From Thermoplasmata archaeon (lineage in GTDB: Archaea; Thermoplasmatota; E2; DHVEG-1; B18-G2): a stretch of DNA of 35,634 nucleotides. The position numbers and the translations under genes are program-made. Below the pieces are notes generated by a model. It was not told the origin of the DNA, did no database searches, and saw nothing but the letters and a program-made list of their open reading frames with translations. The stretch spans positions 1 through 35,634 of the forward strand of contig JAGGZU010000041.1 of assembly GCA_021161865.1 (NCBI GenBank), read 5' to 3'. Positions 1 to 33,840 of this stretch are shown in pieces (position 1 is the first letter of the stretch; each line of letters opens with the position of its first letter).

Positions 1-66
1 CAGCTTTTGATATTTTCTATCTAATTGATAAAACTTTTTAAATATAGATTAAATTGGCGTGATCAT

Positions 67-11405: not shown

Positions 11406-11511
11406 CAAAACTGCAATTGAGGAACAGGTAAATAGAGTTGTTGGCGACATCTATTTTTTGGTTTTGGTGAATGATTAGTTTTTTATTATGTAATGCTTTG
11501 ATTATAATGAA

Positions 11512-12353
11512 ATGATTAAACACCTTATGAGTTGATAAGGGAGAGGTTGCGGGATGTCCTATCAGCGAATCTAATACGTTTTATTCCAAGTAAATGGGAG
11601 AAGATTGGTGACGTTTTGATATTTAAAATGCCGGTGGAGCTTCAATCTTACAGTGAAGAGATTGCGGGGGTTTACGCTGAGGTTTTAGGCTGCCGAAGCG
11701 TTCTTGAGGATGTTGGCGGTGTTGAAGGCGAGTGGAGGAAACCACGGGTGAAACTTGTTTATGGCAGCTCAGATACGGAGACCATCCATTGTGAAAACGG
11801 CATCCGGTATAAGCTTGACCCCGTTAAGGTTATGTTTTCCTCTGGTAACATGGATGAACGTATAAGGATGGCAAGGATTTCAATGAGAGATGAAACGGTT
11901 GTGGACATGTTCGCAGGTATAGGGTACTTCTCTCTTCCGATGGCGGTTTATAGTAAACCAAAAAAGGTTTATGCTGTTGAGATAAACCCTGTAGCCTATG
12001 GTTATCTTTGTGAGAACATTTCTTTGAATAATGTGAATAATATTGTTGAACCTGTTTTGGGTGACAACAGGGAGAAAACCCCGGAGGGTGTGGCCGATAG
12101 AGTGATTATGGGGTATCTTCATGATACCTATCGTTTTCTTCCTGCGGCGTTCTCTGCGTTCCACAACTCGGGTATGCTGCATTACCATGAGGTTTGTCCA
12201 AATGAGCTTTTGAACGATAGACCTCTGAGGAGGGTTGAGACGGCTGCGGAGAGGTTTGGTTTTCATGTTGAAGATGTGAAGAGTAGGGTGATAAAATCGT
12301 ATGCACCTGGGGTAAGCCATGTTGTCCTTGATGTAAAGGTTGAGAGGGTTTAG
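11512..12353 (+). CDS. taw2: tRNA(Phe) wyosine aminocarboxypropyltransferase Taw2/TYW2 (Trm5-like fold); probable 1-nt deletion near the start
   Basis: MFS.GN..ER.RM, VVDMFAGIG, ADR.IMGY, HYH, K.YAPGV.HVVLD fit Taw2. Uninterrupted ORF begins at TTG 11532; ATG 11512 joins the frame if one A is added at 11518-11520. Confidence 0.78.
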
Positions 12354-18703: not shown

Positions 18704-19378
18704 ATGTTGAAAACCCCTGTTATTGTGGTTAACGTCAAAACCTATGCTGAGGCAACTGGAGGTAAGGCTTTGGAGTTAGCTAAGCTCATGGACGAGGTAG
18801 CCTCTGAGACAGGTGTTAGTATGGCCATTGCTGTTCAAGCAAGCGATATTTACATGGTTTCTCAGGCTGTTTCTATACCCGTCTTTGCTGAGCACATTGA
18901 TCCAATTAAACCAGGGAGTCACACCGGTTGGACTCTGCCTGAGGCGGTTAAGGAGGCAGGTGCCGTTGGTACGTTTATAAACCATAGTGAACATAGGTTG
19001 AAGCTTGCAGATCTTGATGAATGTATAGCTCGTGCAAAGGAGTTGGATTTAGATCAGATTGTTTGCAGCAACAATATTGCAACCTCTAAGGCCATTGCTG
19101 CTTTGAACCCAAATTTTGTTGCTGTTGAACCACCTGAACTCATAGGCGGGGAGGTTTCAGTTACAAAGGCAAACCCTGATATTGTCAGCGGTACCGTTAA
19201 AGCCGTCAGGGAGATAAACAGGGGCATAGGCATCCTTTGTGGAGCTGGCGTTAAAAACGGTGAGGATGTTAAAAAGGCATTGGAGCTTGGAACAGATGGT
19301 GTGTTGCTTGCCAGCGGTGTGGTTAAGGCTAAGGATAAAAAAGCTGTACTTCTGGATTTAACAAACAATCTTTATTAG
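18704..19378 (+). CDS. tpiA: Triosephosphate isomerase, archaeal type
   Basis: N.KTY, NHSE, AVEPPELIG, CGAG, G.LLASG; GAGGAG RBS. Confidence 0.96.
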   Translation: MLKTPVIVVNVKTYAEATGGKALELAKLMDEVASETGVSMAIAVQASDIYMVSQAVSIPVFAEHIDPIKPGSHTGWTLPEAVKEAGAVGTFINHSEHRLKLADLDECIARAKELDLDQIVCSNNIATSKAIAALNPNFVAVEPPELIGGEVSVTKANPDIVSGTVKAVREINRGIGILCGAGVKNGEDVKKALELGTDGVLLASGVVKAKDKKAVLLDLTNNLY

Positions 19379-20019
19379 CGGATTAAATCATTTACCGCCT
19401 GGTTGTAGTCTTTGCCTTTGAAGACAAAACTTCCAGCTACGAGAACATCAGCACCTGCTTGTCTTACAACCCTTCCAGTTTCTCTGTTGATGCCGCCATC
19501 AACCTCAATCAAAACATTATACTCATGTTCATCGATCTGCTGTCTCAGCCACTCTATTTTTGGTACAACATCTGGGATGAATTTCTGTCCACTGAATCCT
19601 GGGTTTACAGACATGACGAGAACAAGGTCAACCTCTGAAAGCAGGTTTTTTATTCTCTCTATAGGTGTTGATGGGTTCAGTGAGACACCAACCTTACAAC
19701 CTGTTTTCTTAATTTCTTCGATAACCGTTAGAGGATTTTTGCAGGATTCTATGTGAAATGTTATGCCATCTGCTCCAGCATCAGCAAAGTTTTTTGCATA
19801 TTTAGTGGGGTTTTCTATCATAAGATGGACGTCAAAAAACAGTTCTGTTATTTTCCGTATAGATTTTACAACTGGTGGACCTATGGTGATGTTTGGAACA
19901 AAATGCCCATCCATGACATCTATGTGCAACCATTTTGCTCCTGCTTTTTCTACAGCTTTTATTTCTTCTCCAAGTTTCGAGAAATCCGCGGATAGTATGG
20001 ATGGAGCCACTATAACCAT
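19375..20019 (-). CDS. rpe: Ribulose-phosphate 3-epimerase
   Basis: APSILSADF, HIDVMDGHFVPN, DVHLM, MSVNPGF.GQ, EVDGG. True ATG at 20019; the ORF-track extension to 20298 overlaps tal. Confidence 0.96.
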   Translation of the reverse strand: MVIVAPSILSADFSKLGEEIKAVEKAGAKWLHIDVMDGHFVPNITIGPPVVKSIRKITELFFDVHLMIENPTKYAKNFADAGADGITFHIESCKNPLTVIEEIKKTGCKVGVSLNPSTPIERIKNLLSEVDLVLVMSVNPGFSGQKFIPDVVPKIEWLRQQIDEHEYNVLIEVDGGINRETGRVVRQAGADVLVAGSFVFKGKDYNQAVNDLIR

Positions 20020-20033
20020 TGTGTATTTGAGAT

Positions 20034-20057
20034 AAAACCTGGGTTTATAGAGGTTTT
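20034..20057. promoter_or_regulatory. rpe TATA box flanked by a 7-bp inverted repeat in the divergent rpe/tal spacer
   Basis: AAAACCT(20034-20040)-N10-AGGTTTT(20051-20057); minus-strand TATAAA at 20044-20049, 25-30 nt upstream of the rpe ATG. Confidence 0.45.
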
Positions 20058-20113
20058 GAAATTCCAAAATGCTTATCAACAACCTTTTGTTTTCCACCTT
20101 TTGGGGTTTAGTT

Positions 20114-20758
20114 ATGAAGATATTTGTTGACACAGCAGATCTTGATGAGATAAGGGAGCTTGCATCTTGGGGTGTTATAGATGGTGTTACCACAAACCCT
20201 ACTTTGATTGCAAAAAGCGGTAGGTCGTTTAAGGAGATTGTGGATGAGATTTTCAAGATAGTTGATGGACCGATAAGCCTTGAGGTTGTTGGCACCACAG
20301 CTGAGGAGATGGTTAAGGAGGCAAGGCAGCTTGCAGGGATTCATAGGAACGTTGTTGTGAAGATACCGATGACTGCTGAAGGTCTTAAGGCTGTTAAAAC
20401 ATTGAGTAAGGAAGACGTTAAAACCAATGTCACCCTTGTTTTCTCCGCTAATCAGGCTCTTCTCGCAGCGAAGGCTGGTGCAACCTATGTTAGCCCGTTT
20501 ATCGGCAGATTAGACGATATGGGACATGAGGGGATGCAGATAGTTGAGGAGATTGTTGATATATTTGGGAACTATGGCTTTAAAACCCAGATTATTGTTG
20601 CAAGTATTAGGCATCCTGTTCATGTTGTGCAGGCAGCAAGACTGGGAGCGGATGTAGCGACTATTCCACCCGCTGTAATCAAAAAAATGGTGAAGCACTC
20701 CTTAACTGACGTTGGTATACAACGGTTTCTTGAAGATTGGAAGAAGGTGCCAAAGTAA
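20114..20758 (+). CDS. tal: Transaldolase (short Tal/FSA family)
   Basis: [23 protein letters not shown] (Schiff-base Lys), [17 protein letters not shown]. Confidence 0.93.
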
Positions 20759-21077: not shown

Positions 21078-21722
21078 TTATTTTAATGTTTTAACCCACT
21101 CGTACACGGGTTCCACCAGTTTTTTAATCCTCTCCTTTTCCTTGTTCATCGGTGAAGGCTCCCACTCATCAGCTGGTTCAAAATGCCAGTCTGTTATAGC
21201 ACCTATCCGTTGTTCTTTTGGTTTGAAAACTACCTTCAGAGGCATGTTGAACTCGACGTCCCATGGGTTCACACCATGCAACTCGTTTGCTATCGCTGTT
21301 TTTGAACCCTCTATCACACCGTAAACAAGTATTATCGGCAATCTTTTCAACGACGACCTCCCCGACCATCCTGCCACTGTCCAGGTGTGAACCTTTGCTT
21401 TCTTTGGCATCTCAATCCACTCTGTTCTCTGCAGGTTACAGTCAAGGTTCCAGCAATGTGTCCTCGGTGGAACCCATGTGTCACCGCATTTCGGGCAGCG
21501 GGTTCCCATTATCTTTCCTTCAAGTAATCCTATGAAAAAGGGTGAATTCCATCCATGCCGGATGGTGTAGAGTTGATCATAGTGTAGGAACTGGTTCATC
21601 GTTTTTTTGTCATCAGATATCTCGTAACCGACAAAAACCAGCCCTTTTTCTTTAACATCTAGTGGTCTGAAATCTTTTCTAATGGTGAAGTTTGGTGTTT
21701 CCGCAAACTTTTTCTTAACCAT
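21078..21722 (-). CDS. DUF35 Zn-ribbon/OB-fold acyl-CoA-binding protein
   Basis: F..GL.EGKIMGTRCPKCG...VPPR..C....C, V.TWT, V.F.P; begins 1 nt after the thiolase-like gene's stop. Confidence 0.9.
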   Translation of the reverse strand: MVKKKFAETPNFTIRKDFRPLDVKEKGLVFVGYEISDDKKTMNQFLHYDQLYTIRHGWNSPFFIGLLEGKIMGTRCPKCGDTWVPPRTHCWNLDCNLQRTEWIEMPKKAKVHTWTVAGWSGRSSLKRLPIILVYGVIEGSKTAIANELHGVNPWDVEFNMPLKVVFKPKEQRIGAITDWHFEPADEWEPSPMNKEKERIKKLVEPVYEWVKTLK

Positions 21723-21723
21723 T

Positions 21724-22974
21724 TCAAACCCTCCTCAGTATGAAGTTTGATATGCTTGTCCCTGTTCCAGCATGACTGTTTACTATCCCTGTGTGGGGGT
21801 CTGGAACTTGAGTTTTTGAGCTTAAATGTTTTTTTGGAATTAAACCAGCCAGTTGGTAGTATGCTTCTATGGCACTCATGAGTCCTGTTGCACCAACCGG
21901 ATGCCCATAACCCATTAAACCGCCACCTGGGTTCATGGGTATACTACCTTCGAGATATGTTTCTTTGTCTCTTATGAACTGTGCTATGTTTTCACTGTCC
22001 GCTAAACCAAGGGCTTTGTAGATTTGTGCTTCTGAGGTGGAGAACGCGTCATGTATTTCCCCGAAATCTATCTGCTTTAGCGGGTTATCTATTCCAGCTT
22101 GTTTGTAGGCTACCTCTGCTGATTGTCTGCATGCAGCGAACTCTGTCATCTCTGGGTAACCTGGTCCGTATCTTTCTATCCAACCTGGAAAGTTGAGTCT
22201 ATCCCCTGCTCTTATGGTGCAGCTTGATAATCCCATTCCATCGATGGTTACATAATGATCTGGGTTCACTTTTTTAGCATACTCTTCGGTTGTTACAAGT
22301 AGGAATGCTACTCCTCTTGTCATAAGGCAGCAATCGTATTTTTTGATTGGATAAGATATCAGACGGGAGTTTAGAACATCATCCACGGTTATGTACCTAT
22401 GTTCGTTTCTATACCATTGTGCCTTTGGGTTATCCATGGCGTTGTTCCTGTTTTTCACGGCAATCAACGCCACATCTTCTTCTGTAACCTTGTTTTCTCT
22501 CATCCATTTGTTTGCCATAGCTGCATAGTAGATTGGGTAGATGCCGCCAACCATCAGTTCGTATCTTATGTCTGATGCAAGGGCTATGAACTCGCTGCCC
22601 TGGGATTGTGACACTGAGTCCATGGTTTCCCAGCCGATTACTCCAACAACGTCATGTTGTCCTGATTTAACAGCAAGTGCTGCGGCGTATAATGCAGAGC
22701 CACCAGTGTTTCCACCATTCTCTACCCTATAATGTGGTACACCAACGAGACCAAGGTGGTCATGTATTATCCACTCTGCTGAGAGTTGATGCCCAAAATG
22801 CACTGAGAAATGAGAGTAAATCATCATGTCTATGTCTCTGAGGTTGAAGTCTGGTATGTCACGCATAACCTCACGTACGCATTCCGCTGCGCCCCCTTCT
22901 ATGCTTTCAAAACCGGTTGGACCATAATCAAATGGTGTTGTTGCACCACCTATTATACAAACCTTCCTGGACAT
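21724..22974 (-). CDS. SCP2/Ltp-type thiolase-fold protein lacking catalytic cysteines
   Basis: VKNR.NA..NP.AQ, V..S....P....DCC, EIHDAF, NP.GGL...GHP.GATG; nucleophile loop reads VENGGNTGG instead of VExACxSG. Confidence 0.88.
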   Translation of the reverse strand: MSRKVCIIGGATTPFDYGPTGFESIEGGAAECVREVMRDIPDFNLRDIDMMIYSHFSVHFGHQLSAEWIIHDHLGLVGVPHYRVENGGNTGGSALYAAALAVKSGQHDVVGVIGWETMDSVSQSQGSEFIALASDIRYELMVGGIYPIYYAAMANKWMRENKVTEEDVALIAVKNRNNAMDNPKAQWYRNEHRYITVDDVLNSRLISYPIKKYDCCLMTRGVAFLLVTTEEYAKKVNPDHYVTIDGMGLSSCTIRAGDRLNFPGWIERYGPGYPEMTEFAACRQSAEVAYKQAGIDNPLKQIDFGEIHDAFSTSEAQIYKALGLADSENIAQFIRDKETYLEGSIPMNPGGGLMGYGHPVGATGLMSAIEAYYQLAGLIPKKHLSSKTQVPDPHTGIVNSHAGTGTSISNFILRRV

Positions 22975-23061: not shown

Positions 23062-24879
23062 TTATCTTCCAACCACTATACCCGCCGGATCAATTTGTTT
23101 GAGTATACTCAACTCTTTTTTGGTTGGTGGAGTTGTTGTCTGCACATTCTCTGGTATTGTTATGTTGAACCCGCTGTTGTTTTTTATATCCTCAATGGTT
23201 ACACCAGGATGAATCGATAGCAGTGTCATTTGTTTTGTTTTCTCATCAAACCCGTATACTCCAAGTTGGGTTATCACCCTGTAGGGTCCACTCGTAGTGG
23301 GTAAACCATTTTTTTCCCTAGAGTTTTTACCGTTTAGGTAACCTGGTGTGGTTAGGAAATCGATTTTTTTTACAAACCTGTTTTTGTCTTGTCTCATTAT
23401 TATAATGGTTTTGTTGCATAGACTTCCAACGTCGTTTGCACCACCACTCCCAGGGAGTCTCACCTTTGGTTTTTCGTAGTCTCCTATCACGGTCGTGTTT
23501 ATGTTCCCGTACATGTCTATCTGTGCTGCTCCAAGGAAGCCGTAGTCTATGTATCCTGCTTGTGCCATGGACATGGAGTCATGCATGCTTGATGCAGCAA
23601 CAGCCATGTGGAAGGTTCTTGAGTCCCCAACCGATATCGGGAGTACAGGTATTTCTGGTCCGATTCCTCCTGCTTCGAAGAAAAGCAGCAGGTTTGGTGC
23701 ATGTGTTTTTTGTGCGAGCATTGCCGCTATCATTGGTAAACCTGTTCCCACAAACACCGACTTGTTGTCTTCCAGGAGGTGTGATGCGGCGCAGGCAAGC
23801 AGTTCAGTGGATGAGTAGGTTTGTTGTTGGAACTGTTGTTTTTTCTTTTTTATCCAGGGTGCGTTCATGGGTTTTTCAAGTCGTTCAATTTTTTCAAGCT
23901 GTTGAAGCCTTGTTTTTCCACCGATTAATCTTAGATATTCTTCTAAATCTTCGGTTCCATAAACGTATTTTTCCAGGTAACTCTTTACGCCTTCATCTGT
24001 TTTCGAAAGTGTAAGCCATTCCCCAATGTGTTGTTCATCAAAGAAATACTGGTAGGGCATTTGGCAGGGATGGGAACCAAATGCTGCTTCAACAACAGCG
24101 TCAACAAGGTAGAAGGGTATAACGGTTTTCCAAGGCTCTTGCCTTATTTCTTTACTGTCAACGATTTTTTCGGTTGTGATGATAACTCTTCTTGCTGCAC
24201 GAGCAAGCTCAAAGTCTTCAACCATTATACCATCAATCTGAGCGTTCCCATGTTTGTCGCATCTTGGTACATGTATAACCGTTACGTCAGGATAGCACGC
24301 CGGTAGCAAACAAACAGTTTTACCACTAAAAGGGTCTTTTATTGTTTTTGCTGAACTATGTTTGAATGTGTCTGTTCCAAGCATCACCCGTGTTGGTATA
24401 AAAGGTACTCCCATCATTGCTGCTAGGAAACGCCATTGGTAACCGGCGTTACTGATTTCACCAACTACCTTGCATTTTCCTGTTTCAACTGCTCGGCGTG
24501 ATGCTGGTGAGAGTCCTCGAAGCTCATGACCAAAGGCGTAGGCTACCTCGACTTTGTTAACACAACCAGAGGCTACAAGGAGATCAAGGTCATGGACGGC
24601 TGTTTTTCCAGCCATTATTAGGTTTCTTCTAGGTTGCCTTATGATCTCGTAAACAACAGCCATTGAAACCCTCACATGACCGAAGCCACCCATTGCTAAA
24701 AGGTCGCCGTTTTTTATAAAACTGGAGACAGCTTCCTTAGCATTCATTCTTTTGTCAATTAAACCCCTGGGTTTGTTTTTTAGTATCCACCTGCGGTTTT
24801 CATCAGGGTCATACCATCCAATTAGTTTGCCCCTGCCTTCCTCCAGCACCATTTTGTCGTCTGCTTTGCTGTGTCCCAT
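23062..24879 (-). CDS. Family I CoA-transferase, glutaconate CoA-transferase-like alpha and beta subunits fused
   Basis: Alpha: GGF, G.PF.P, IH....D..GNA, FGSHP; beta: VFVGTGLP, FEAG, GFLGAAQID.YGN.N.T, RLPGSGGAND, FV..IDF.T.PG. Confidence 0.88.
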   Translation of the reverse strand: MGHSKADDKMVLEEGRGKLIGWYDPDENRRWILKNKPRGLIDKRMNAKEAVSSFIKNGDLLAMGGFGHVRVSMAVVYEIIRQPRRNLIMAGKTAVHDLDLLVASGCVNKVEVAYAFGHELRGLSPASRRAVETGKCKVVGEISNAGYQWRFLAAMMGVPFIPTRVMLGTDTFKHSSAKTIKDPFSGKTVCLLPACYPDVTVIHVPRCDKHGNAQIDGIMVEDFELARAARRVIITTEKIVDSKEIRQEPWKTVIPFYLVDAVVEAAFGSHPCQMPYQYFFDEQHIGEWLTLSKTDEGVKSYLEKYVYGTEDLEEYLRLIGGKTRLQQLEKIERLEKPMNAPWIKKKKQQFQQQTYSSTELLACAASHLLEDNKSVFVGTGLPMIAAMLAQKTHAPNLLLFFEAGGIGPEIPVLPISVGDSRTFHMAVAASSMHDSMSMAQAGYIDYGFLGAAQIDMYGNINTTVIGDYEKPKVRLPGSGGANDVGSLCNKTIIIMRQDKNRFVKKIDFLTTPGYLNGKNSREKNGLPTTSGPYRVITQLGVYGFDEKTKQMTLLSIHPGVTIEDIKNNSGFNITIPENVQTTTPPTKKELSILKQIDPAGIVVGR

Positions 24880-24985: not shown

Positions 24986-26125
24986 ATGAACTTTGAGTTA
25001 ACACCTGAGCAGAAGGCTATACAAAAAACGGTGCGTGAGTTTTGTGAAAAAGAGATAAAACCCATTGCTGCCAAGATCGATGACGAGGAGGAGTTTCCAT
25101 GGGATCTTTACAAAAAGATGGGTAAACTTGGTCTCATGGGGATGACCGTTCCCAAGGAGTACGGCGGTGCAGGTATCGACCGGTTGAGCTACATGCTCGC
25201 TCTTGAGGAGATCTCCAAAGCATCTGGTTCGGTTGGTATAACGGTTGAGGCACATAACTCACTTGGTATAGGTCACATCTACGAAAAAGGCACGGAGGAG
25301 CAACGTAGGAAGTATTTGCCGAGGCTTACAAGCGGTGAAGCCATCGCTGCGTGGGCGCTCACTGAGCCAAATGCCGGCTCTGATGCCGCTTCGATTCAAA
25401 CAACAGCTGTGCTTGAGGGGGATGAATGGGTTTTGAATGGTACAAAACATTTCATCACAAGCGGTGATATCGCTGAGGTTGTTACGGTTATGGCTAAAAC
25501 TGATAAGGAAAAGGGTGCAAAGGGCATTAGCGCTTTTATTGTTGAGAAGGGGACACCTGGTTTTGAGGTTGGTGTACTTGAGGACAAGCTTGGTTTACGT
25601 GGCAGTAGAACCGCTGAGCTTATCTTAGAGGACTGTAGGGTTCCTAAGGAGAATCTTCTTGGTGAAAAAAACATGGGTTTCATTGGTGCAATGAACATTC
25701 TTGACCGTGGTAGAACAGCGATTGGTGCTATGGCTGTCGGTATAGCTCAGGCTGCTCTTGAGGAAAGTATAGAGTATTCTAAACAACGGCAGCAGTTTGG
25801 TAGACCAATCTCTAAGTTTCAAGCAGTTCAGTGGATGATTGTTGACATGGCCACTGAGATTGAAGCTGCTCGTTTACTGGTTCACCGTGCTGCATTCCTT
25901 GAGGATCATGATATACCGTTTACTAAAGAGGCTGCTATGGCTAAACTTTTTGCCTCTGAGATGGCGATGCGAGCCACCAGGAAAGCTATTCAGGTTCATG
26001 GTGGCTATGGTTACACAAAGGAGTATCCTCTCGAAAGGTTTTTCAGGGATGTAAAGCTCTGTGAGATTGGTGAAGGCACTTCTGAGGTTCAGAGATTGGT
26101 TATTGCAAGGAGACTTGGTTTATAA
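24986..26125 (+). CDS. Short/branched-chain acyl-CoA dehydrogenase (likely isovaleryl-CoA dehydrogenase role)
   Basis: ALTEP.AGSDA, LNG.K.FIT, KLG.R.S, R.QFG.PI..FQ, Q.HGGYGY, EIGEGTSE; GAGGAG RBS. Confidence 0.9.
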   Translation: MNFELTPEQKAIQKTVREFCEKEIKPIAAKIDDEEEFPWDLYKKMGKLGLMGMTVPKEYGGAGIDRLSYMLALEEISKASGSVGITVEAHNSLGIGHIYEKGTEEQRRKYLPRLTSGEAIAAWALTEPNAGSDAASIQTTAVLEGDEWVLNGTKHFITSGDIAEVVTVMAKTDKEKGAKGISAFIVEKGTPGFEVGVLEDKLGLRGSRTAELILEDCRVPKENLLGEKNMGFIGAMNILDRGRTAIGAMAVGIAQAALEESIEYSKQRQQFGRPISKFQAVQWMIVDMATEIEAARLLVHRAAFLEDHDIPFTKEAAMAKLFASEMAMRATRKAIQVHGGYGYTKEYPLERFFRDVKLCEIGEGTSEVQRLVIARRLGL

Positions 26126-26138
26126 TAAATAGAAAAAG

Positions 26139-27794
26139 GTGGTTGGTATGAAGAACATGTTGAGTGGTGCTTCTAAAAAGGAGGACAGGTATGAGGAGAT
26201 GTACAGGAACTTTAAATGGAATGTTCCAGAGTACTACAATTTTGGTTTTGATGTTGTTGACAGGTGGGCTGAGGACAGGACTAAACTAGCTTTGATTTCC
26301 ATTGATAGAACAGGGAAACATGATAGGTATCACACATTTTATGACCTCAGTGTTGCGTCGAACAGGTTTGCTAACGTGCTTAGAAATATTGGTGTGAAAA
26401 AAGGAGATCGTGTGCTTGTTATCCTTCAGAGCATACCTGAGTGGTATATTGCGTTGATTGGCATGTTTAAACTTGGTGTTGTACCTATGCCTGGAACCGT
26501 GTTGCTTACAGCAAAGGACATTGAGTACCGTATCAACCGTGCAGAGGCTTGTATGGTGCTCACAGACCTTGATCATGCGGATAGTGTGGAGGCGGTGAAG
26601 GCTAACTGCCCAACGTTGAAACATATGATGCTTGTTGACGGTAAAAGAGCTGGTTGGTACAACTTTTATGAGGAGATGAGCGAGGCTTCACCAGAGCTTT
26701 CCCAAGAGGGGGTTGGTAAAACTAGGTCTACGGATCCAATGCTTATCTATTTCACCTCCGGTACCACCGGTCACCCTAAAATGGTTCTTCACACTCATAG
26801 TTATCCTCTTGGTCATGAGGTGACCGCTAAGTTCGCGCAGGCTTTGACTGATAAGGATTTGCATTGGACTGTTTCTGAAACCGGTTGGGCGAAGGCTGCC
26901 TGGGGTAAGCTTTTTGGTCAGATGATTGTTGGAGCCGCTATTATTCAGTGGGAGACACCTGGTAGGTTTGACCCTGATGGTTTACTGAGGGCTATGGAGA
27001 AGTATGGTGTAACAACCTTTTGCGCTCCACCAACGGTTTACCGGATGCTTATCCAGCTTGATCTCTCCAAGTATAATCTTAAGCTTCGTCATTGTATGAG
27101 CGCTGGTGAGCCACTCAACCCGGAGGTTATAAGGGTTTGGAAGAAAGCCTTTGGTTTAGACATCTATGATTTTTATGGTCAAACCGAGACCGTTTGTGTA
27201 CTGTCCAACTACCCTTTTATGCCCATCAAGTATGGTTCAGTGGGGAAACCAACACCTGGTCATGATGTGAGGATAGTGGACGACGATGGAAACGAGTTGA
27301 AGCCAGGTGAAGTTGGCAACATAGCCCTCTATATTGGTAAGGAGCGTCCACCAGGTTTGTTCAAGGAGTATTGGAAGGATGAGGAGGCGATGAAGGAAGC
27401 ATTCAGAGGGGACTATTATTTCACAGGTGATCTTGGTTACAAGGATGAGGATGGTTATTTCTGGTTTGTTGGTCGTAGAGATGATGTGATAAAATCTTCT
27501 GGTTATCGTATAGGCCCTTTTGAGGTGGAGTCTGCTTTGATGGAGCATCCAGCTGTTGCTGAGTGTGCTGTCGTTGGCGTACCTGACCCACAGGGAATAA
27601 GGGGGACTGTAGTCAAGGCCTTCGTCGTTCTTGCAAAGGGTTTTAAACCATCTGAGACGCTTACAAAGGGGCTTCAGGATCATGTGAAGAAAACCACTGC
27701 ACCGTACAAGTACCCACGTATAGTGGAGTACGTTGATGAGTTACCGAAGACTATTTCAGGTAAGATACTTAGACGTGAACTTAGGAAAAAATGA
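26139..27794 (+). CDS. AMP-forming medium/branched-chain acyl-CoA synthetase (ACSM-like)
   Basis: YNFGFDVVD, YFTSGTTGHPK, GWAK..WG, SAGEPLN, YGQTE, TGD, GR.DD, PKT.SGK. Start 26139 or 26148. Confidence 0.92.
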   Translation: MVGMKNMLSGASKKEDRYEEMYRNFKWNVPEYYNFGFDVVDRWAEDRTKLALISIDRTGKHDRYHTFYDLSVASNRFANVLRNIGVKKGDRVLVILQSIPEWYIALIGMFKLGVVPMPGTVLLTAKDIEYRINRAEACMVLTDLDHADSVEAVKANCPTLKHMMLVDGKRAGWYNFYEEMSEASPELSQEGVGKTRSTDPMLIYFTSGTTGHPKMVLHTHSYPLGHEVTAKFAQALTDKDLHWTVSETGWAKAAWGKLFGQMIVGAAIIQWETPGRFDPDGLLRAMEKYGVTTFCAPPTVYRMLIQLDLSKYNLKLRHCMSAGEPLNPEVIRVWKKAFGLDIYDFYGQTETVCVLSNYPFMPIKYGSVGKPTPGHDVRIVDDDGNELKPGEVGNIALYIGKERPPGLFKEYWKDEEAMKEAFRGDYYFTGDLGYKDEDGYFWFVGRRDDVIKSSGYRIGPFEVESALMEHPAVAECAVVGVPDPQGIRGTVVKAFVVLAKGFKPSETLTKGLQDHVKKTTAPYKYPRIVEYVDELPKTISGKILRRELRKK

Positions 27795-27802
27795 AAAAGG
27801 TT

Positions 27803-29407
27803 TTACATTCTGTACATTGTTGGTTTCCACTTTGGTATTGGTGCGTTGAGTGCAGCTGATATACCTAAACCCAGTACCATTCTTGTGTCAGCTGGGTCGA
27901 TAACACCATCATCCCATATCCTCGCTGTGCTGTAGTATGGGCTTCCCTCTCTCTCATATTTTTTGAGTATAGGTTCTATGATGGCTTTTTCCTCCTCCTT
28001 TGTCAAGGTTTTTCCTTTACGCCAAAGCTGGTCTTTTTTTACGGTTAAAAGCACGTTCGCTGCCTGTTCGCCACCCATAACTGAGATTCTAGCGTTTGGC
28101 CACATCCAAAGCTGCCTTGGCTGGTAGGCTCTACCACACATCCCATAGTTTCCTGCACCGAAGGAACCGCCTATTATAACAGTGAACTTTGGAACGTTTG
28201 CTGTGGTTACTGCACTAACCATTTTCGCTCCATCCTTTGCTATACCGCCTGCCTCGTATTTTTTTCCAACCATGAAACCTGTTATGTTCTGTAGAAACAC
28301 TAATGGTATTTTTCGTTGACAGCATATCTCTATGAAATGTGTTCCTTTGAGTGCAGATTCAGAGAACAGTACACCATTGTTTGCGAGTATACCAACAGGA
28401 TAACCCATGATTCTTGCAAAACCACACACAAGTGTAGTACCATAGAGTGCTTTGAATTCATGGAATTTTGACCCATCCACCAGTCTAGCTATGATTTCTC
28501 TGACCTCGAAGGGTTTCCTGGGATCCTTTGATATTACCCCATAGATTTCTTTTATATCATACAGTGGTTCCTCAGGTTTTTTGACATCAAGCTGTGTTTT
28601 CTCAGGTCTATTGAGGTTTTCAACAATGTTTCTCGCTATCTGTATAGCCTCCATGTCGTTGTGCGCGTAATGGTCTGCAACCCCACTTTCCCTGCAGTGT
28701 ACGTCTGCTCCACCAAGCTCCTCAGCTGTGACTTCTTCACCAGTTGCTGCTTTAACAAGAGGTGGACCGCCGAGGAAGATTGTACCAGTGCCTTTGACGA
28801 TTATTGTTTCATCGGACATAGCAGGTACGTATGCTCCTCCGGCGGTGCAGGAGCCCATGACAACAGCTATTTGAGGTATACCCATTGATGACATCTTGGC
28901 TTGGTTGTAGAATATTCTACCAAAATGTTCTCTGTCAGGGAAAACCTCATCCTGCATTGGTAGGAATGCTCCACCAGAATCAACAAGGTATATGCACGGT
29001 AGGTTGTTTTCCATTGCTATCTCTTGAGCGCGGAGATGTTTTTTTACAGTCATCGGGTAGTAGGTTCCACCTGTTACTGTGGCATCGTTTGCTATAACAA
29101 CAACCTCTCGTCCATGGATGATTCCTATCCCTGTTATAATGCCTGCAGCGGGAGCCTTGTTGTCGTACATGTCGTAGGCAGCAAGAGGGTTGAACTCCAT
29201 GAAGGGTGTGTCTGGGTCAAGGAGCGCTTCTATTCTTTCCCTGGCAAGCATTTTGCCACGTGATTTATGAAGTTTTATTCTCTCCTCTCCTCCTTTAGAT
29301 GCTTCAGCGATTTTGGCTTTTAAATCTTTGACAAGTTTCTCATAGTGGGCATAGTTTTCTTTAAACTCTTTGCTTGATGTGTCAATGTGACTCTCAATCA
29401 CATCCAT
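27803..29407 (-). CDS. mccB: 3-methylcrotonyl-CoA carboxylase carboxyltransferase (beta) subunit
   Basis: [72 protein letters not shown]. True ATG 29407. Confidence 0.92.
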
Positions 29408-29411
29408 TTTT

Positions 29412-29903
29412 TTATTCCTCCTTCTTTTCAATTTCCACCGTGATTTCTCCAAGTTCTATCTGATCTTTCTCTTTGAAGTTAACCTTTTTTACCATTCCAT
29501 CATATGGCGCTTTTATGAGGTACTCCATCTTCATGGCCTCTATGACCATGAGCACATCTCCTTTTTTAACTGCATCTCCCTTTTTCACGTTAACCCGCAC
29601 GACTTTCCCTGATATTGGTGAGGAGAGATTTCCCTCTTTTTTCTCCATTCTTTTTCTACCCGTTAAAGGTACAGGTTTAACTTTGAAGACATCACCGTCT
29701 ATGAAAACAAACTTACCGTTTTTTCCCTCAGCGACAACACATTTTATGTACCTGTCGCCAAGCTTTATTTTGAGTTGACCTGGTTTAACCTCCTCTGCTT
29801 CAACGGTGTAGGTGGTGTTGTCGTAGGTAACAAGGTATTTATCTTCTTTTCTTTCGACCTCAACATTGTAAACATGGTTTTCGTACTCATAGTTGATGAA
29901 CAT
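29412..29903 (-). CDS. Biotin carboxyl carrier subunit with N-terminal BT-like domain
   Basis: SP..GKV, EAMKME biotinylation motif; ATG 29903. Confidence 0.9.
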
Positions 29904-29904
29904 G

Positions 29905-31401
29905 CTACACACCTATCCTCCATCTACCAGTGTGTTTCCATGGTGAATGCGGATCAGGTTCCTTGTATCTAACCACTTCCTCTCGTTTTGGATGCAGGGC
30001 ATTATAGATTGCAAGACCTATAATGGCATCAAGTGGCAGTCCTTTTTGTTGTTCACCCCAGTCTTTGAAGTAAGTGTCTATGAAGTGTGTTGTGATGTTT
30101 CCTCTTCTAAAAGCTTCATGTTTCAAAACCCTTTTCAGAAATGGAATGTTTGTTGTAACTCCCAGTATAACATACCTTGACAGAGCCCATATCATTTTGT
30201 TTATGCTTTCCTCCCTGTTTTCGCCACCGACTATGAGTTTGGCAAGCATTGGATCATAGTAGGGTGTTATCTCTAACCCTGTTTCGATTCCAGCATCATT
30301 CCTTATGTTTGGACCCAGTGGCATCTCCACTTTTTCTAGTACTCCAACGCTCGGCAGGAAACCATGAGCTGGATCCTCAGCATATATCCTGCATTCCAAG
30401 GCGTGCCCCCTTTGGTGAACATCCTTTTGAGTGAGGTCGAGTTCTTTTCCAGCAGCGATTTTTATCTGACGTTTAACGATGTCTACACCTGTAGTCATCT
30501 CTGTGATTGGATGCTCGACTTGTAACCTCGTATTCATCTCCATGAAATAGTAGTTTAGGTTGCCATCGACCATAAACTCTATGGTGCCAGCATTTGTGTA
30601 ACCAACCGCTTCTGCAGCTTTAACAGCAGCCTCACCCATCTCTTTTCTTAAATCCTTTGTCATAACAGGAGAAGGTGTTTCTTCTATGATTTTTTGATGC
30701 CTTCTTTGGATGGAGCATTCTCTTTCAAACAGATGTATGATGTTGCCGTGTTCGTCAGCAAGTATCTGAAACTCTATGTGCCGTGGTTTGTCAAGGTATC
30801 TTTCAAGGAAAACCATGTCGTTTCCAAAGGAGGATTTTGCTTCACGTTTCGCGCTTTCTATGGATTCTTCAAGGTTTTCTTCTGAGTGAACGATTTTCAT
30901 TCCTTTCCCGCCACCGCCGGCAACAGCTTTAACAAGCAGAGGGAAACCTATCTTTTTTCCCTCTTTAACCAGTATTTTTGTGTCCTGTTTAAGCCCATGG
31001 TAACCCGGGATAATAGGTACACCTGCTTTTTCCATTGTTTTTTTGGCTTTTATTTTGTCACCCATGAGCGCGATAACCCTTGCATCTGGACCTATGAATT
31101 TCAATCCACTGTCCCTGCAAGCCTGCGCGAAATCAGGGTTTTCAGCCAGGAAACCATAACCCGGGTGTATGGCTTCAGCTCCCTTTTTTTCAGCTGCTTC
31201 AATGATCTTTCCTATGTTTAGGTAGCTCTCAGATGGTGTGGGGTCGCCAAGGTTCACTGATTCATCAGCTAGGTTTACATGTGGTGCTTTTTCATCAACC
31301 TTGGAGTAGACTGCAACGGTTTCTATCCCCATCTCCTTGCATGCATGGATCACTCTGATTGCTATTTCTCCACGGTTTGCTATCAGGATCTTTTTGAACA
31401 C
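29905..31401 (-). CDS. Biotin carboxylase subunit of methylcrotonyl-CoA carboxylase
   Basis: KKILIANRGEIA, HPGYGFLAEN, GGGGKGM, ERECSIQRRHQK, EMNTRLQVEHP, YYDPMLAK; GTG 31401 after GGAGG. Confidence 0.93.
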   Translation of the reverse strand: MFKKILIANRGEIAIRVIHACKEMGIETVAVYSKVDEKAPHVNLADESVNLGDPTPSESYLNIGKIIEAAEKKGAEAIHPGYGFLAENPDFAQACRDSGLKFIGPDARVIALMGDKIKAKKTMEKAGVPIIPGYHGLKQDTKILVKEGKKIGFPLLVKAVAGGGGKGMKIVHSEENLEESIESAKREAKSSFGNDMVFLERYLDKPRHIEFQILADEHGNIIHLFERECSIQRRHQKIIEETPSPVMTKDLRKEMGEAAVKAAEAVGYTNAGTIEFMVDGNLNYYFMEMNTRLQVEHPITEMTTGVDIVKRQIKIAAGKELDLTQKDVHQRGHALECRIYAEDPAHGFLPSVGVLEKVEMPLGPNIRNDAGIETGLEITPYYDPMLAKLIVGGENREESINKMIWALSRYVILGVTTNIPFLKRVLKHEAFRRGNITTHFIDTYFKDWGEQQKGLPLDAIIGLAIYNALHPKREEVVRYKEPDPHSPWKHTGRWRIGV

Positions 31402-31402
31402 C

Positions 31403-32185
31403 CTATTCCCTCCAACTTGGTTTCTTTTTTTCAAGAAAAGCACGTATCCCTTCTTGTCCCTCCTTTGACACTCTAAGTTCGGCTATCTTCTTCACCGTAT
31501 ACTCCTTGTATTCTCCTGTTTTCAGCTCCTGATACATTCTTACAAGGTTTTTCACCTCTTTCACAGCATTTGGACCTGATGTTAGCGTTAGGTTAACATA
31601 TTTTTTTATGGTTTCATCAAGCAAATCCTGTGGAACAACATGGTCGATTAAACCCATATGTTCCGCGTACTGGGAGTCGAAACGTTCACCTGTTATAAAG
31701 AGTCGTCTGGTGTTTGCTATGCCTATGCGTCTTATCACGTATGGGGAGATTACAGCAGGTATTATACCCAGTTTCACCTCGCTGAACGCGAACTTTAGGT
31801 TGGGGGTGGCTACGTTTATGTCACATACGGCAAGTAAGCCTAGTCCTCCACCGAAGGCATGCCCGTTTATTCTTCCAATAACAGGTTTTGAACAGTTGTC
31901 AATGGTTTCGTATAAGTCAAGCAGAAGCCTGCTGTCACTGATGTTTTCCTCCATGGTGTAGTCAGCCATACTCTTCATCCAGTTTAGGTCCGCACCAGCG
32001 CAGAAGGATTTACCGTTTCCTGTTAAAACAACGACTCTAATCTGTTCATCTGAGTTTATTTTTTTAAAACAGGAGGTAAGTTCTTTCATCATCTTTTCGT
32101 TCATTGCGTTGTGAACCTCTGGTCTATCCAATGCTATTGTAATAGTTTTTTCTTCTTTTGTAACAGCAATGGTTTCGTAACTCAT
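31403..32185 (-). CDS. Enoyl-CoA hydratase family, probable 3-methylglutaconyl-CoA hydratase (LiuC-type)
   Basis: FCAGADL.WM, AFGGG.GL, SEVKLG..PAVISP.V, EG.EG..AFLEK..P.W; first gene of the MCC operon. Confidence 0.85.
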   Translation of the reverse strand: MSYETIAVTKEEKTITIALDRPEVHNAMNEKMMKELTSCFKKINSDEQIRVVVLTGNGKSFCAGADLNWMKSMADYTMEENISDSRLLLDLYETIDNCSKPVIGRINGHAFGGGLGLLAVCDINVATPNLKFAFSEVKLGIIPAVISPYVIRRIGIANTRRLFITGERFDSQYAEHMGLIDHVVPQDLLDETIKKYVNLTLTSGPNAVKEVKNLVRMYQELKTGEYKEYTVKKIAELRVSKEGQEGIRAFLEKKKPSWRE

Positions 32186-32542: not shown

Positions 32543-32622
32543 ACCACCAAGATTGAAATTCTAGGATTTTTTACGAAATAAATATAAGGCAAAAGTAGAT
32601 ACCTCTGAGCGGAGGGTAATTG

Positions 32623-33840
32623 ATGAATCTAGAGCGGTTATTCTCAGGAAGGACAAAAACGATGCGTCCTTCAGAAATTAGAGAGCTCCTAAAGCTTACG
32701 CAGAATCCTGAAATTATATCATTTGCTGGTGGTTTACCAAACCCCTCGTCGTTTCCAATAGATGAGATGCAGAATGTCTGCATAGATGTGCTGAAGAAAC
32801 ATGGTAAACTGGCTCTTCAATATGGACCTACAGAGGGTATGCGGCCTTTGAGAAACTCTTTGGCAAACAGGGCGAAGAAGGAAGGGATAGACGCATCATC
32901 GGATAATGTTTTGATAACCTCTGGCTCTCAGCAGGGTTTGGATGTGCTTGGAAGGGTTTTTCTTGATCCCGGTGACACGATAATAGTTGGCTTGCCAACA
33001 TATCTTGGTGCGTTGAATGCGTTCCGTGCCTATGAAGTAAACTTTGCCGGTATTCCTCTTGACAAAGATGGCATGCAGGTTGATTTACTTGAAGAAAAGG
33101 TGAAGGAGTTAAACAAAAAGGGTGTGACGCCAAAGTTTATTTATTTGGTTCCAACATTTCAAAACCCTGCAGGCGTGGTGATGCCTGAGAGTAGAAGGAG
33201 AAGGGTTGTTGATATTGCAAATGAGTATGACCTTATAGTTATTGAGGATGATCCCTATAGTAAGCTTAGGTTTGAGGGCGACCATATTAAACCAATAAAA
33301 TCCTTTGATGACGAGGGTAGGGTCATTTATCTCTCAACGTTCTCCAAAATTCTTTCCCCTGGTTTCAGATTGGCGTGGATGATTGCATCAGAGCCTCTCA
33401 TAAGAAAGCTAACCATTGGTAAACAAGCTCTTGATCTCTGCACAAACACCTTCGTTCAGTTTATTGCAAACGAGTTCATAGAGAAAGGTTCTCTTGATTT
33501 ACATATAATGAAGATTATAGAGATGTATCGACCAAAGAGGGATATTATGATGGAGTCGATAAAAAAATACTTTCCGTCTGATACGGTGTGTCATAAACCA
33601 AAGGGTGGTATGTTTGCATGGGCCACTATCCCTGGACCAATTGATACCGAGGAGATGTTTCTCGATGCCATTAAAGAAAAGGTTGCCTACATCCATGGTA
33701 AAGCGTTTTATGTTGATGGTGGTGGGGCAAACTCCATGCGTCTAAACTTTTCCTACTCCTCAAACCAGACGATAGAGGAAGGTATGAAGCGGCTTGGGAA
33801 GGTGATAGAGAGAAAGCTGAAAGAAGCGGCTGCACAATGA
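32623..33840 (+). CDS. PLP-dependent class I/II aminotransferase (ARO8/LysN-like, broad-specificity)
   Basis: S.IRELLK, ISFAGGLP, LQYG.TEG, GSQQ.LD, FQNP.G, EDDPY, TFSK.L.PG.R, RLNFS; GGAGG RBS. Confidence 0.92.
   Translation: MNLERLFSGRTKTMRPSEIRELLKLTQNPEIISFAGGLPNPSSFPIDEMQNVCIDVLKKHGKLALQYGPTEGMRPLRNSLANRAKKEGIDASSDNVLITSGSQQGLDVLGRVFLDPGDTIIVGLPTYLGALNAFRAYEVNFAGIPLDKDGMQVDLLEEKVKELNKKGVTPKFIYLVPTFQNPAGVVMPESRRRRVVDIANEYDLIVIEDDPYSKLRFEGDHIKPIKSFDDEGRVIYLSTFSKILSPGFRLAWMIASEPLIRKLTIGKQALDLCTNTFVQFIANEFIEKGSLDLHIMKIIEMYRPKRDIMMESIKKYFPSDTVCHKPKGGMFAWATIPGPIDTEEMFLDAIKEKVAYIHGKAFYVDGGGANSMRLNFSYSSNQTIEEGMKRLGKVIERKLKEAAAQ

Follow-up and report, generated by a model that had tools for sequence, protein, structure and literature searches.

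According to PMC12329534, the only characterised thiolase-fold enzymes that pair with a DUF35 protein and lack the catalytic cysteines are Ltp2 and Sal, both retro-aldolases with a glycine at the nucleophile position, whose catalytic residues are Tyr294 (in a YDHF motif) and Tyr344 in Ltp2, and Tyr302 and Cys304 (in YDCY) in Sal. Archaeal genomes, above all those of Asgard archaea, carry multiple thiolase/DUF35 pairs, which a preprint reads as a sign of fatty-acid synthesis (bioRxiv 10.1101/2024.07.05.601840). Here we analyse a stretch of 35,634 nucleotides, hereafter the window (contig JAGGZU010000041.1, positions 1 to 35,634), from a Thermoplasmatota metagenome-assembled genome (GCA_021161865.1, here G000; 1.44 Mb, 133 contigs, 88% complete). 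It encodes a 416-amino-acid thiolase-fold protein without either catalytic cysteine, which we call ThlG (21724-22974, minus strand), together with a DUF35 partner of 214 amino acids (21078-21722, minus strand). Reasoning by analogy, we tentatively propose that ThlG and its DUF35 protein form a third, independently evolved DUF35-dependent, non-thiolytic C–C lyase of the thiolase fold. We place the chance of this at somewhat under even, an estimate that concerns the general mechanism and neither of the substrates considered below.

A thiolase fold without the catalytic cysteines

The VENGGNTGG motif of ThlG begins at residue 84 and is placed by a HMMER alignment over IEAACASGG of the Pyrococcus furiosus thiolase 7YVY, which puts Gly88 (codon 22711-22713) at the position of the nucleophilic cysteine. 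The two histidine motifs of thiolases are present as HDAF at residues 308-311 (22042-22053) and GHP at residues 357-359 (21898-21906). ThlG has six cysteines (residues 6, 32, 215, 216, 252 and 282), none of them in a C-terminal CxG; the loop that bears CxG in classical thiolases reads SHAGTG and includes Ser400-His401 (21772-21777; all on the minus strand). A closed relative genome encodes a canonical thiolase (L068:1571-2737, minus strand) that reads RIEGACASGG, HDCF, GHP and NVGGSG at the same columns; ThlG has therefore lost both catalytic cysteines. A preliminary description of this locus had already singled out the glycine at residue 88, the missing CxG, the two surviving histidine motifs and a DUF35 gene 1 nt downstream, and on all of these it was right. 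It had also stressed that HDCF reads HDAF; the residues are as described, but the motif is not diagnostic by itself, as the cysteine-bearing 7YVY thiolase and BbsB share it. Of the features of a catalytic thiolase, then, ThlG has the fold with its two histidine loops and lacks both the nucleophilic and the acid/base cysteine. To judge from these residues, it cannot be a covalent-catalysis thiolase that works through the usual cysteines.

Residue conservation was counted across 108 full-length homologues, which come from Thermoplasmatota, from Asgard archaea and from a sister clade in bacteria. Gly88 is fixed in 108/108, which marks a real enzyme family and not chance or sequencing error. His358 is equally invariant, as is His401, a family-specific residue in the former CxG loop that may have a catalytic role, while His308 and Ala310 are each found in 107 of the 108. 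A conserved family-specific segment at about residues 255-285 (22120-22212, minus strand), with an insertion that is absent from canonical thiolases, contains Arg255, Asp258, Arg259, Tyr273 and Arg283; Arg255 and Arg259 each occur in all 108 homologues and Arg283 in 105, and it may be speculated that this arginine-rich segment binds a carboxylate. Cys216 is kept in 105/108, where the canonical thiolase of the relatives has serine. As judged from sequence, strong constraint at the active-site positions of ThlG is thus established, and orthologue identities of 82-89% within Thermoplasmatota and 71-76% to Asgard archaea fit an active enzyme.

The bacterial sister clade, at roughly 35-45% identity, has the same signature without the cysteines (E[GS]GGATGG, HDA[FY], GHP and SHAGTG). 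It corresponds to NCBIfam NF004982 (PRK06365), a "thiolase domain-containing protein" without assigned function, to which ThlG, about 40% identical, does not belong (340.3 bits against a cut-off of 695, compared with 712.4 bits for the bacterial sequence P0116). Among the best 150 matches in a library of representatives at 50% identity, there are 141 full-length sequences, of which 58 have no cysteine at the aligned position, although the most distant of these alignments are uncertain. Source databases label ThlG "acetyl-CoA C-acetyltransferase" or "thiolase domain-containing protein", and its matches in the ESM Atlas bear generic thiolase cluster names only.

Ancestry of ThlG and its DUF35 partner

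Pfam identifies thiolase domains only in ThlG (Thiolase_C_1, 87.7 bits; Thiolase_N, 38 bits) and no HMGL-like TIM-barrel. The closest structures to its AlphaFold model (pLDDT 86.9) are 6ESQ and 6ET9 (TM 0.87-0.93), the thiolase of the archaeal complex of thiolase, HMG-CoA (3-hydroxy-3-methylglutaryl-CoA) synthase (HMGCS) and DUF35, together with 7YVY. Because archaeal thiolases are its nearest relatives in both sequence and predicted structure, ThlG is a re-tooled archaeal DUF35-type thiolase that lies outside the Ltp2 and Sal clades.

The DUF35 open reading frame (ORF) starts 1 nt past the ThlG stop codon, and among the 59 ThlG loci from species-representative genomes that make up our neighbourhood survey, a DUF35 gene lies directly 3' of ThlG in all 54 that have at least 750 bp of downstream sequence. 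In Pfam the protein scores 27.3 bits to zf-ChsH2, over the cut-off of 23.2, and has a weaker match to OB_ChsH2_C. Its zinc ribbon, C76-x2-C79 ... C90-x4-C95 (21438-21497, minus strand), is well conserved, C76, C79 and C90 being invariant and C95 present in at least 90% of 21 sequences. At 214 amino acids it has conserved extensions at both ends, with LHYDQLYTIRHGWNS near the N-terminus and EKERIKKLVEPVYEWVKTLK at the C-terminus, as well as a AGWSGRSSLKRLP motif, all of which are absent from the canonical DUF35 protein of 135 amino acids. These additions may contribute to the active site or provide surfaces on which a third protein docks. A complex prediction for ThlG, DUF35 and the LiuC-like hydratase encoded in the window, in which the hydratase was scored, returned 0.00; run without controls, this value counts neither for nor against binding.

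Genomic context of the pair

On the minus strand of the window, ThlG and DUF35 follow a fused alpha/beta CoA-transferase of 605 amino acids (23062-24879; Pfam CoA_trans, 243 bits), the first gene of the operon. Its best matches in the Protein Data Bank (PDB) are GctB and GctA (1POI, 167 and 132 bits), followed by AibA/B and IpdAB, and the catalytic glutamate of GctB aligns with the glutamate in its FFEAGG motif, which places the enzyme in the glutaconate CoA-transferase family rather than with the SCOT/AtoDA type. Divergent from this operon is an acyl-CoA dehydrogenase (ACAD; 24986-26125, plus strand) whose PDB matches identify it as Bcd-type or short-chain (SCAD) type, scoring 457 bits to Clostridioides difficile Bcd (5OL2) and 400 to SCAD, and not as isovaleryl-CoA dehydrogenase (IVD) type (320-340 bits).

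This arrangement recurs. For the 45 surveyed loci with upstream sequence, a CoA-transferase lies upstream of ThlG in 18 and a ligase of 644 amino acids, ACS2, in 17 (L005:7937-9871 and 16 others); no locus has both and ten have neither, with unrelated genes in that place in L006, L029, L014 and L032. ACS2 thus alternates with the CoA-transferase. It is a dedicated paralogue, with orthologues at 80-82% identity as opposed to 47-49% to the housekeeping Acs that is also present, and although its best score is to Acs (acetate–CoA ligase), its acyl-pocket position reads SGGTE, compared with WWQTE in Acs and SGGTD in the Streptomyces acetoacetate–CoA ligase (AACS) 4WD1. By these motifs ACS2 is best described as a hybrid acetate-/acetoacetate-ligase-like paralogue. 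An orthologous ACAD lies in 14 of the 59 loci. Methylcrotonyl-CoA carboxylase (MCC) genes are found within 10 kb of ThlG in only three, and HMGCS adjoins the pair in none; nor does the window encode HMGCS, so that its pair has neither the neighbouring HMGCS nor the cysteine-bearing thiolase of the archaeal mevalonate complex.

Within family f2, in the window's own order, CoA-transferase orthologues occur in 22 of 31 ThlG-positive and none of 23 ThlG-negative genomes. The ACAD orthologue is present in all 31 ThlG-positive genomes and in 15 of 16 that have MCC and lack ThlG, and is missing from all seven that have neither MCC nor ThlG. In two Asgard loci (L049 and L051) the genes divergent from the pair encode an ACAD-like protein, a MaoC (R)-hydratase resembling PhaJ and a split CoA-transferase, and MaoC is also present in a third (L048). 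Partners recur less regularly in the bacterial sister clade, where, of 80 metagenome loci chosen by a pattern containing the cysteine-less motif, 23 have an ACAD with at least 45% identity, seven a CoA-transferase, six an ACS2-like gene and six an MCC-like carboxyltransferase (CT) or biotin carboxylase (BC). ThlG, DUF35, an acid-activating enzyme and a Bcd-type ACAD are therefore established as a tight recurrent module. The preliminary description had looked for conserved linkage to MCC; the tightest conserved linkage of the pair is instead to the Bcd-type ACAD and the acid-activating enzyme. The examined loci showed no gene of the glutaconate pathway, 2-hydroxyglutaryl-CoA dehydratase included. 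In four stretches from ThlG-negative, MCC-positive genomes, two of which reach contig ends and whose ORFs are unannotated, nothing beside the ACAD suggests a replacement gene.

NosD/beta-helix repeat genes were also observed at several loci, between the CoA-transferase and ThlG in L023, L033 and L045 and directly upstream of ThlG in L014, L029 and L034.

MCC, HMG-CoA lyase and the distribution of the pair

Further along the window lies a carboxylase operon on the minus strand, encoding a crotonase-fold hydratase (31403-32185), BC (29905-31443; NCBIfam accC-type, 645-681 bits), a biotin carboxyl carrier protein (BCCP; 29412-29912; Pfam Biotin_lipoyl) and a CT (27803-29452). With human MCCC2 the CT reaches 794 bits, and with the MCC beta subunit of Pseudomonas aeruginosa 790, as against about 257 with true propionyl-CoA carboxylase (PCC) beta subunits, and on these scores the cluster is MCC-type, as the preliminary description had stated. 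The hydratase resembles LiuC and methylglutaconyl-CoA hydratases (PRK07468, 288.6 bits; gamma-carboxygeranoyl-CoA hydratase, 239.9 bits in NCBIfam, both under their cut-offs). The ORFs called in this operon (27803-32185) overlap by 41 nt between hydratase and BC, 8 nt between BC and BCCP and 41 nt between BCCP and CT, which suggests translational coupling, or that some starts have been called too early.

The same 401 Thermoplasmatota genomes were searched for ThlG, the MCC-type CT and HMG-CoA lyase (NF004283). The genomes are related, so the counts that follow are not independent and the two-by-two comparison within f2 overstates independence. ThlG orthologues occur in 37 genomes, comprising 31 of the 54 in f2, five elsewhere and G000 itself, and the search found none in families f30, f12 or f27. 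The MCC-type CT is far more widespread, in 46/54 genomes of f2, 58/58 of f30, 35/36 of f12 and 10/10 of f27, the last three groups (103/104 genomes) showing 65-73% identity. In f2, 30 genomes have both ThlG and MCC, one has ThlG without MCC, 16 have MCC without ThlG and seven have neither. HMG-CoA lyase exceeds the cut-off in a single one of the 401 genomes, with no match at all in f30, f12 and f27; PF00682 (the DRE-TIM HMGL-like domain) has no match in G000, an 88% complete genome, and no DRE-TIM HMG-CoA lyase was found in two closed relative genomes. The PF00682 matches in closed genomes G001 and G002 were considered as HMG-CoA lyases and rejected, being isopropylmalate/homocitrate-synthase-like.

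Outside f2 the pair also occurs without MCC. All eight Asgard genomes tested that carry the pair have neither an MCC-type CT nor a lyase above cut-off, and among the other ThlG-bearing Thermoplasmatota, G026 has no CT match while G134 and G195 have distant ones only (E ~1e-102). The sole f2 genome with ThlG and no MCC, the closed G399, keeps ACAD, enoyl-CoA hydratase (ECH), ACS2, ThlG and DUF35. Its decayed MCC operon (L096, G399:C1:1870000-1889999, ~10657-12028) retains an intact LiuC-like hydratase next to a BC remnant matching residues 3-209 of 512, with BCCP and CT gone, so that MCC was evidently lost secondarily. Where pair and MCC share a contig, the distance is 5-20 kb in G000 and in nine genomes of f2, and 50 kb in a tenth f2 genome; the MCC genes and the LiuC-like hydratase stand in the same neighbourhood as the pair in the window, L015, L017 and L019.

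These distributions recast the case made in the preliminary description, which regarded the pair as a replacement for HMG-CoA lyase because cleavage of HMG-CoA seemed the step missing from the adjacent cluster. Its expectation that no canonical lyase would be found elsewhere in the genome is borne out for G000, for the two closed relatives and for 400 of the 401 genomes of the phylum. The argument from a "missing step" finds no support, with 103 of the 104 genomes in f30, f12 and f27 and 16 genomes of f2 carrying MCC and neither the pair nor a lyase, and the predicted anti-correlation between pair and lyase cannot exist when the lyase is nearly absent everywhere. Co-occurrence with MCC holds in f2 (30/31) and fails in the Asgard genomes, whose ThlG is nevertheless 71-76% identical. 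What survives of the replacement idea is HMG-CoA as a candidate substrate.

Absence of the lyase is instead the norm of the phylum, and HMG-CoA can enter the mevalonate pathway. One study proposes such leucine-to-mevalonate routing for Calditenuis (PMC12979851). If HMG-CoA feeds that pathway, MCC-bearing genomes lacking both the pair and the DRE-TIM lyase are to be expected, and the pattern in f30, f12 and f27 points to HMG-CoA as the end point of leucine or isovalerate carbon, which would pass from there into the synthesis of isoprenoid lipids. G000 has an HMG-CoA reductase (contig C33). The canonical archaeal HMGCS-thiolase-DUF35 operon was not found in it, which probably reflects a gap in the assembly, given its completeness of 88% and the presence of the operon in four relatives (G001-G004); PF08540 is insensitive for archaeal HMGCS, the Methanocaldococcus jannaschii and Sulfolobus controls having been missed. 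A classical (bacterial-type) thiolase, a 3-hydroxyacyl-CoA dehydrogenase (Hbd) and a crotonase (Crt) stand in a row elsewhere in G000 (C116:3380-6207; 68-80% identical to locus L025 by tblastn), and this set could finish acetoacetyl-CoA.

Proposed function and alternative explanations

We propose that ThlG would bind an acyl-CoA and break, or make, its Cα–Cβ bond by way of a CoA-thioester enolate stabilised by the retained His308 and His358, without an acyl-enzyme, and that the zinc-ribbon/OB protein of the DUF35 family would be its obligatory structural partner. The most likely form of this mechanism is a retro-aldol reaction that splits a short 3-hydroxyacyl-CoA into acetyl-CoA and a carbonyl compound, a preference based on analogy with Ltp2 and Sal and on the ACAD and hydratase context. 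An acid-activating enzyme, either the glutaconate-type CoA-transferase or ACS2, and the Bcd-type ACAD complete the module, to which Asgard archaea add the PhaJ-type hydratase. Several observations weigh against this proposal. The catalytic residues of the known aldolases (Tyr294 and Tyr344 of Ltp2, Tyr302 and Cys304 of Sal) are absent, so ThlG would need a novel acid/base pair; Cys216 is kept in nearly every homologue; in Foldseek, true archaeal thiolases take ranks 1-4 for the ThlG model while Ltp2 and Sal come in at 29 and 37; and ThlG scores 161 bits to 7YVY as against 56 to Ltp2 and 52 to Sal.

Two substrates come into consideration. Cleavage of HMG-CoA would give acetoacetate and acetyl-CoA, with the CoA-transferase re-activating the acetoacetate, and the thiolase-Hbd-Crt set of G000 is in keeping with such a fate for acetoacetyl-CoA. 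The nesting of the pair in MCC-bearing f2 genomes, its position near MCC on shared contigs, the near-absence of a canonical lyase and the acetoacetate-ligase-like pocket of ACS2 also favour this substrate; we think HMG-CoA a possible but doubtful one. Speaking against it are the rarity of MCC beside ThlG, the glutaconate-type identity of the CoA-transferase, the Bcd/SCAD-type rather than IVD-type ACAD, the many MCC-bearing genomes without pair or lyase, and the pair's presence without MCC in Asgard archaea, in G026 and in G399, G134 and G195 having distant CT matches only. Alternatively, the pair could act independently of MCC on another 3-hydroxyacyl-CoA, for instance splitting 3-hydroxyisovaleryl-CoA into acetone and acetyl-CoA, to which we give a rather low probability. 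Dependence on the ACAD accounts just as well for the pair being nested in the f2 genomes that bear MCC. In a fuller version of the proposal, a class of retro-aldolases using His308, His358 and His401, perhaps with Cys216, would be a non-homologous HMG-CoA lyase in Thermoplasmatota that makes the leucine-to-mevalonate branch catabolic, its Asgard orthologues and its bacterial sister clade (PRK06365) cleaving related short tertiary or secondary 3-hydroxyacyl-CoAs; this scenario, too, is on balance doubtful.

A narrower case of the same proposal is that the pair specifically replaces the DRE-TIM HMG-CoA lyase and closes the leucine/isovalerate pathway, the CoA-transferase or ACS2 activating acetoacetate. 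The near-complete confinement of the f2 pair to MCC-bearing genomes, whose one exception has a truncated MCC operon, fits this idea, as do the MCC genes and LiuC-like hydratase near the pair in four loci including the window, the AACS-type pocket motif of ACS2, the single canonical lyase in 401 genomes and the MCC-like genes beside 6 of 80 bacterial loci. It has to contend, however, with Asgard genomes that have the pair and no MCC, with the 103 genomes of f30, f12 and f27 and 16 of f2 in which MCC occurs without pair or lyase, and with G399, which kept ACAD, ECH, ACS2, ThlG and DUF35 after losing MCC; moreover, HMG-CoA is itself a precursor of archaeal lipids, so that no step need be "missing". 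Overall we consider strict replacement questionable, with a chance well short of even. Cysteine-less ketosynthases (KS-Q/CLF) are a precedent for decarboxylation through a histidine-stabilised enolate, and ThlG might likewise decarboxylate a dicarboxylyl-CoA (glutaconyl-, 3-methylglutaconyl- or malonyl-CoA, for example) independently of biotin, with its histidine pair stabilising the enolate, the CoA-transferase supplying the substrate and the ACAD acting on the product or a precursor. A CoA-transferase nearest to GctAB with its catalytic glutamate kept, an ACAD nearest to bifurcating Bcd, and Arg255, Arg259 and Arg283 as potential carboxylate ligands are all compatible with such chemistry, and according to PMC12329534 the thiolase-like relative TbSLP slowly decarboxylates malonyl-CoA, whereas CtSal does not. 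Yet the enzyme that stands in for the CoA-transferase, ACS2, is of the Acs/AACS family, whose members are ligases of small monocarboxylates, a methylglutaconyl-CoA decarboxylase beside the ATP-dependent MCC would create a futile cycle, and the loci show no glutaconate-pathway gene; we regard a decarboxylase as unlikely.

The remaining explanations deny ThlG either catalysis or a change of chemistry. As a dead thiolase it could serve as a scaffold or CoA-ester adaptor, for example passing acetoacetyl-CoA from the CoA-transferase or ACS2 to HMGCS through DUF35, and its nearest structures do come from the thiolase/HMGCS/DUF35 complex (6ESQ, 6ET9), both catalytic cysteines are gone and relatives carry a canonical HMGCS-thiolase-DUF35 operon elsewhere. 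Against this, the active-site histidines and the new polar residues are invariant across a divide of 35-45% identity, which would be unusual for a scaffold, and the pair is syntenic with catabolic genes and never next to HMGCS in the 59 loci, making the idea very unlikely. A thiolase or acyltransferase with Cys216 as a relocated nucleophile would account for the retention of that cysteine in 105 of 108 homologues where the canonical thiolase of relatives has serine. The nucleophile loop and acid/base positions, however, are changed to glycine and alanine in all members, G000 already has a classical thiolase and the relatives also an archaeal one. We know of no thiolase-superfamily enzyme with its nucleophile at the position of Cys216, and this last alternative strikes us as the most improbable of all.

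Other features of the window

Between the ACAD and the carboxylase operon lies an AMP-forming acyl-CoA synthetase that is MbcS-like (26139-27794, plus strand; NCBIfam AcylCoAsynMbcS, 512.6 bits, under the cut-off of 850). A ribulose-phosphate 3-epimerase ORF (19375-20298, minus strand) has an N-terminal extension of 96 residues that overlaps a transaldolase ORF on the opposite strand (20069-20758, plus strand); since the Pfam match begins at residue 97, the start of the epimerase is probably further downstream. The flanks of the window carry a clostripain-family (C11) peptidase of 763 amino acids (25-2316, plus strand) and a class I/II aminotransferase (32620-33840, plus strand) divergent from the hydratase, which fit a peptide- and amino-acid-degrading lifestyle.

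Implications and relation to known enzymes

Judged by its active site, one strongly conserved archaeal thiolase/DUF35 pair cannot be a thiolase at all. Within the literature covered, from which most subscription journals are missing, we found no account of a cysteine-less thiolase/DUF35 pair in archaea, nor of an HMG-CoA lyase outside the DRE-TIM fold or a lyase acting on 3-hydroxyisovaleryl-CoA. Should ThlG prove to be a lyase, it would represent a new catalytic solution in the thiolase superfamily and would alter the reconstructed metabolism of Thermoplasmatota from sediments and of Asgard archaea, where the present annotation is "acetyl-CoA C-acetyltransferase"; it may then also account for the gain of acetyl-CoA from branched-chain acids in archaea that have no DRE-TIM lyase. 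Independently of this, MCC without HMG-CoA lyase is normal in Thermoplasmatota, which fits the use of leucine for isoprenoid lipids.

Compared with known systems, the pair is best filed among the non-thiolytic DUF35-dependent thiolase-fold enzymes, with a different catalytic set. The kinship to such enzymes suggested in the preliminary description is upheld, as is its view of a distinct subtype, ThlG having histidine where Ltp2 and Sal have tyrosine. HMG-CoA lyase (LiuE/HMGCL, DRE-TIM; NF004283, PF00682) resembles ThlG in the proposed reaction only, namely the retro-aldol/Claisen-type splitting of a tertiary 3-hydroxyacyl-CoA once MCC and methylglutaconyl-CoA hydratase have acted, and differs in its unrelated fold and metal-dependent mechanism. 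The archaeal acetoacetyl-CoA thiolases 6ESQ/6ET9 and 7YVY, nearest by sequence and fold, likewise have a small DUF35 partner of their own in a neighbouring gene, but they possess the nucleophilic cysteine that ThlG lacks, and ThlG differs further in having no adjoining HMGCS and a longer DUF35 protein (214 as opposed to 135 amino acids). TbSLP, the SCP2-thiolase-like protein of Trypanosoma brucei, is thiolase-like, devoid of thiolase activity and a proposed aldolase; it has a YDCF motif, no reported DUF35 partner (PMC12329534), and Foldseek ranks of 38-50 to ThlG.

The closest functional parallels are the two aldolases. Sal-Shy, the bile-acid aldolase of Comamonas testosteroni (PDB 9MYR), shares with ThlG the glycine (Gly89) and a DUF35 partner, and Sal is described as freeing acetyl-CoA by retro-aldol cleavage (PMC12329534); in place of its Tyr302 and Cys304, ThlG has His308 and Ala310. 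Ltp2-ChsH2, the steroid side-chain aldolase of Thermomonospora curvata (PDB 6OK1), combines a thiolase fold, glycine at the nucleophile position and a DUF35 zinc-ribbon/OB partner, as does ThlG, for which the partnership is read from gene adjacency. According to the same source, Ltp2 acts after an ACAD and a hydratase and frees an acyl-CoA by retro-aldol chemistry, and the parts list of the Asgard loci L049 and L051 is that of ChsE/ChsH/Ltp2. The two nevertheless part ways in detail: Tyr294 of Ltp2 corresponds to His308 of ThlG, with the Tyr344 column outside the alignment, and the DUF35 of Ltp2 is a domain of the MaoC hydratase ChsH2 whereas that of ThlG is a separate protein. Ltp2 belongs to steroid breakdown in Actinobacteria, while ThlG is found among short-chain enzymes in anaerobic archaea.

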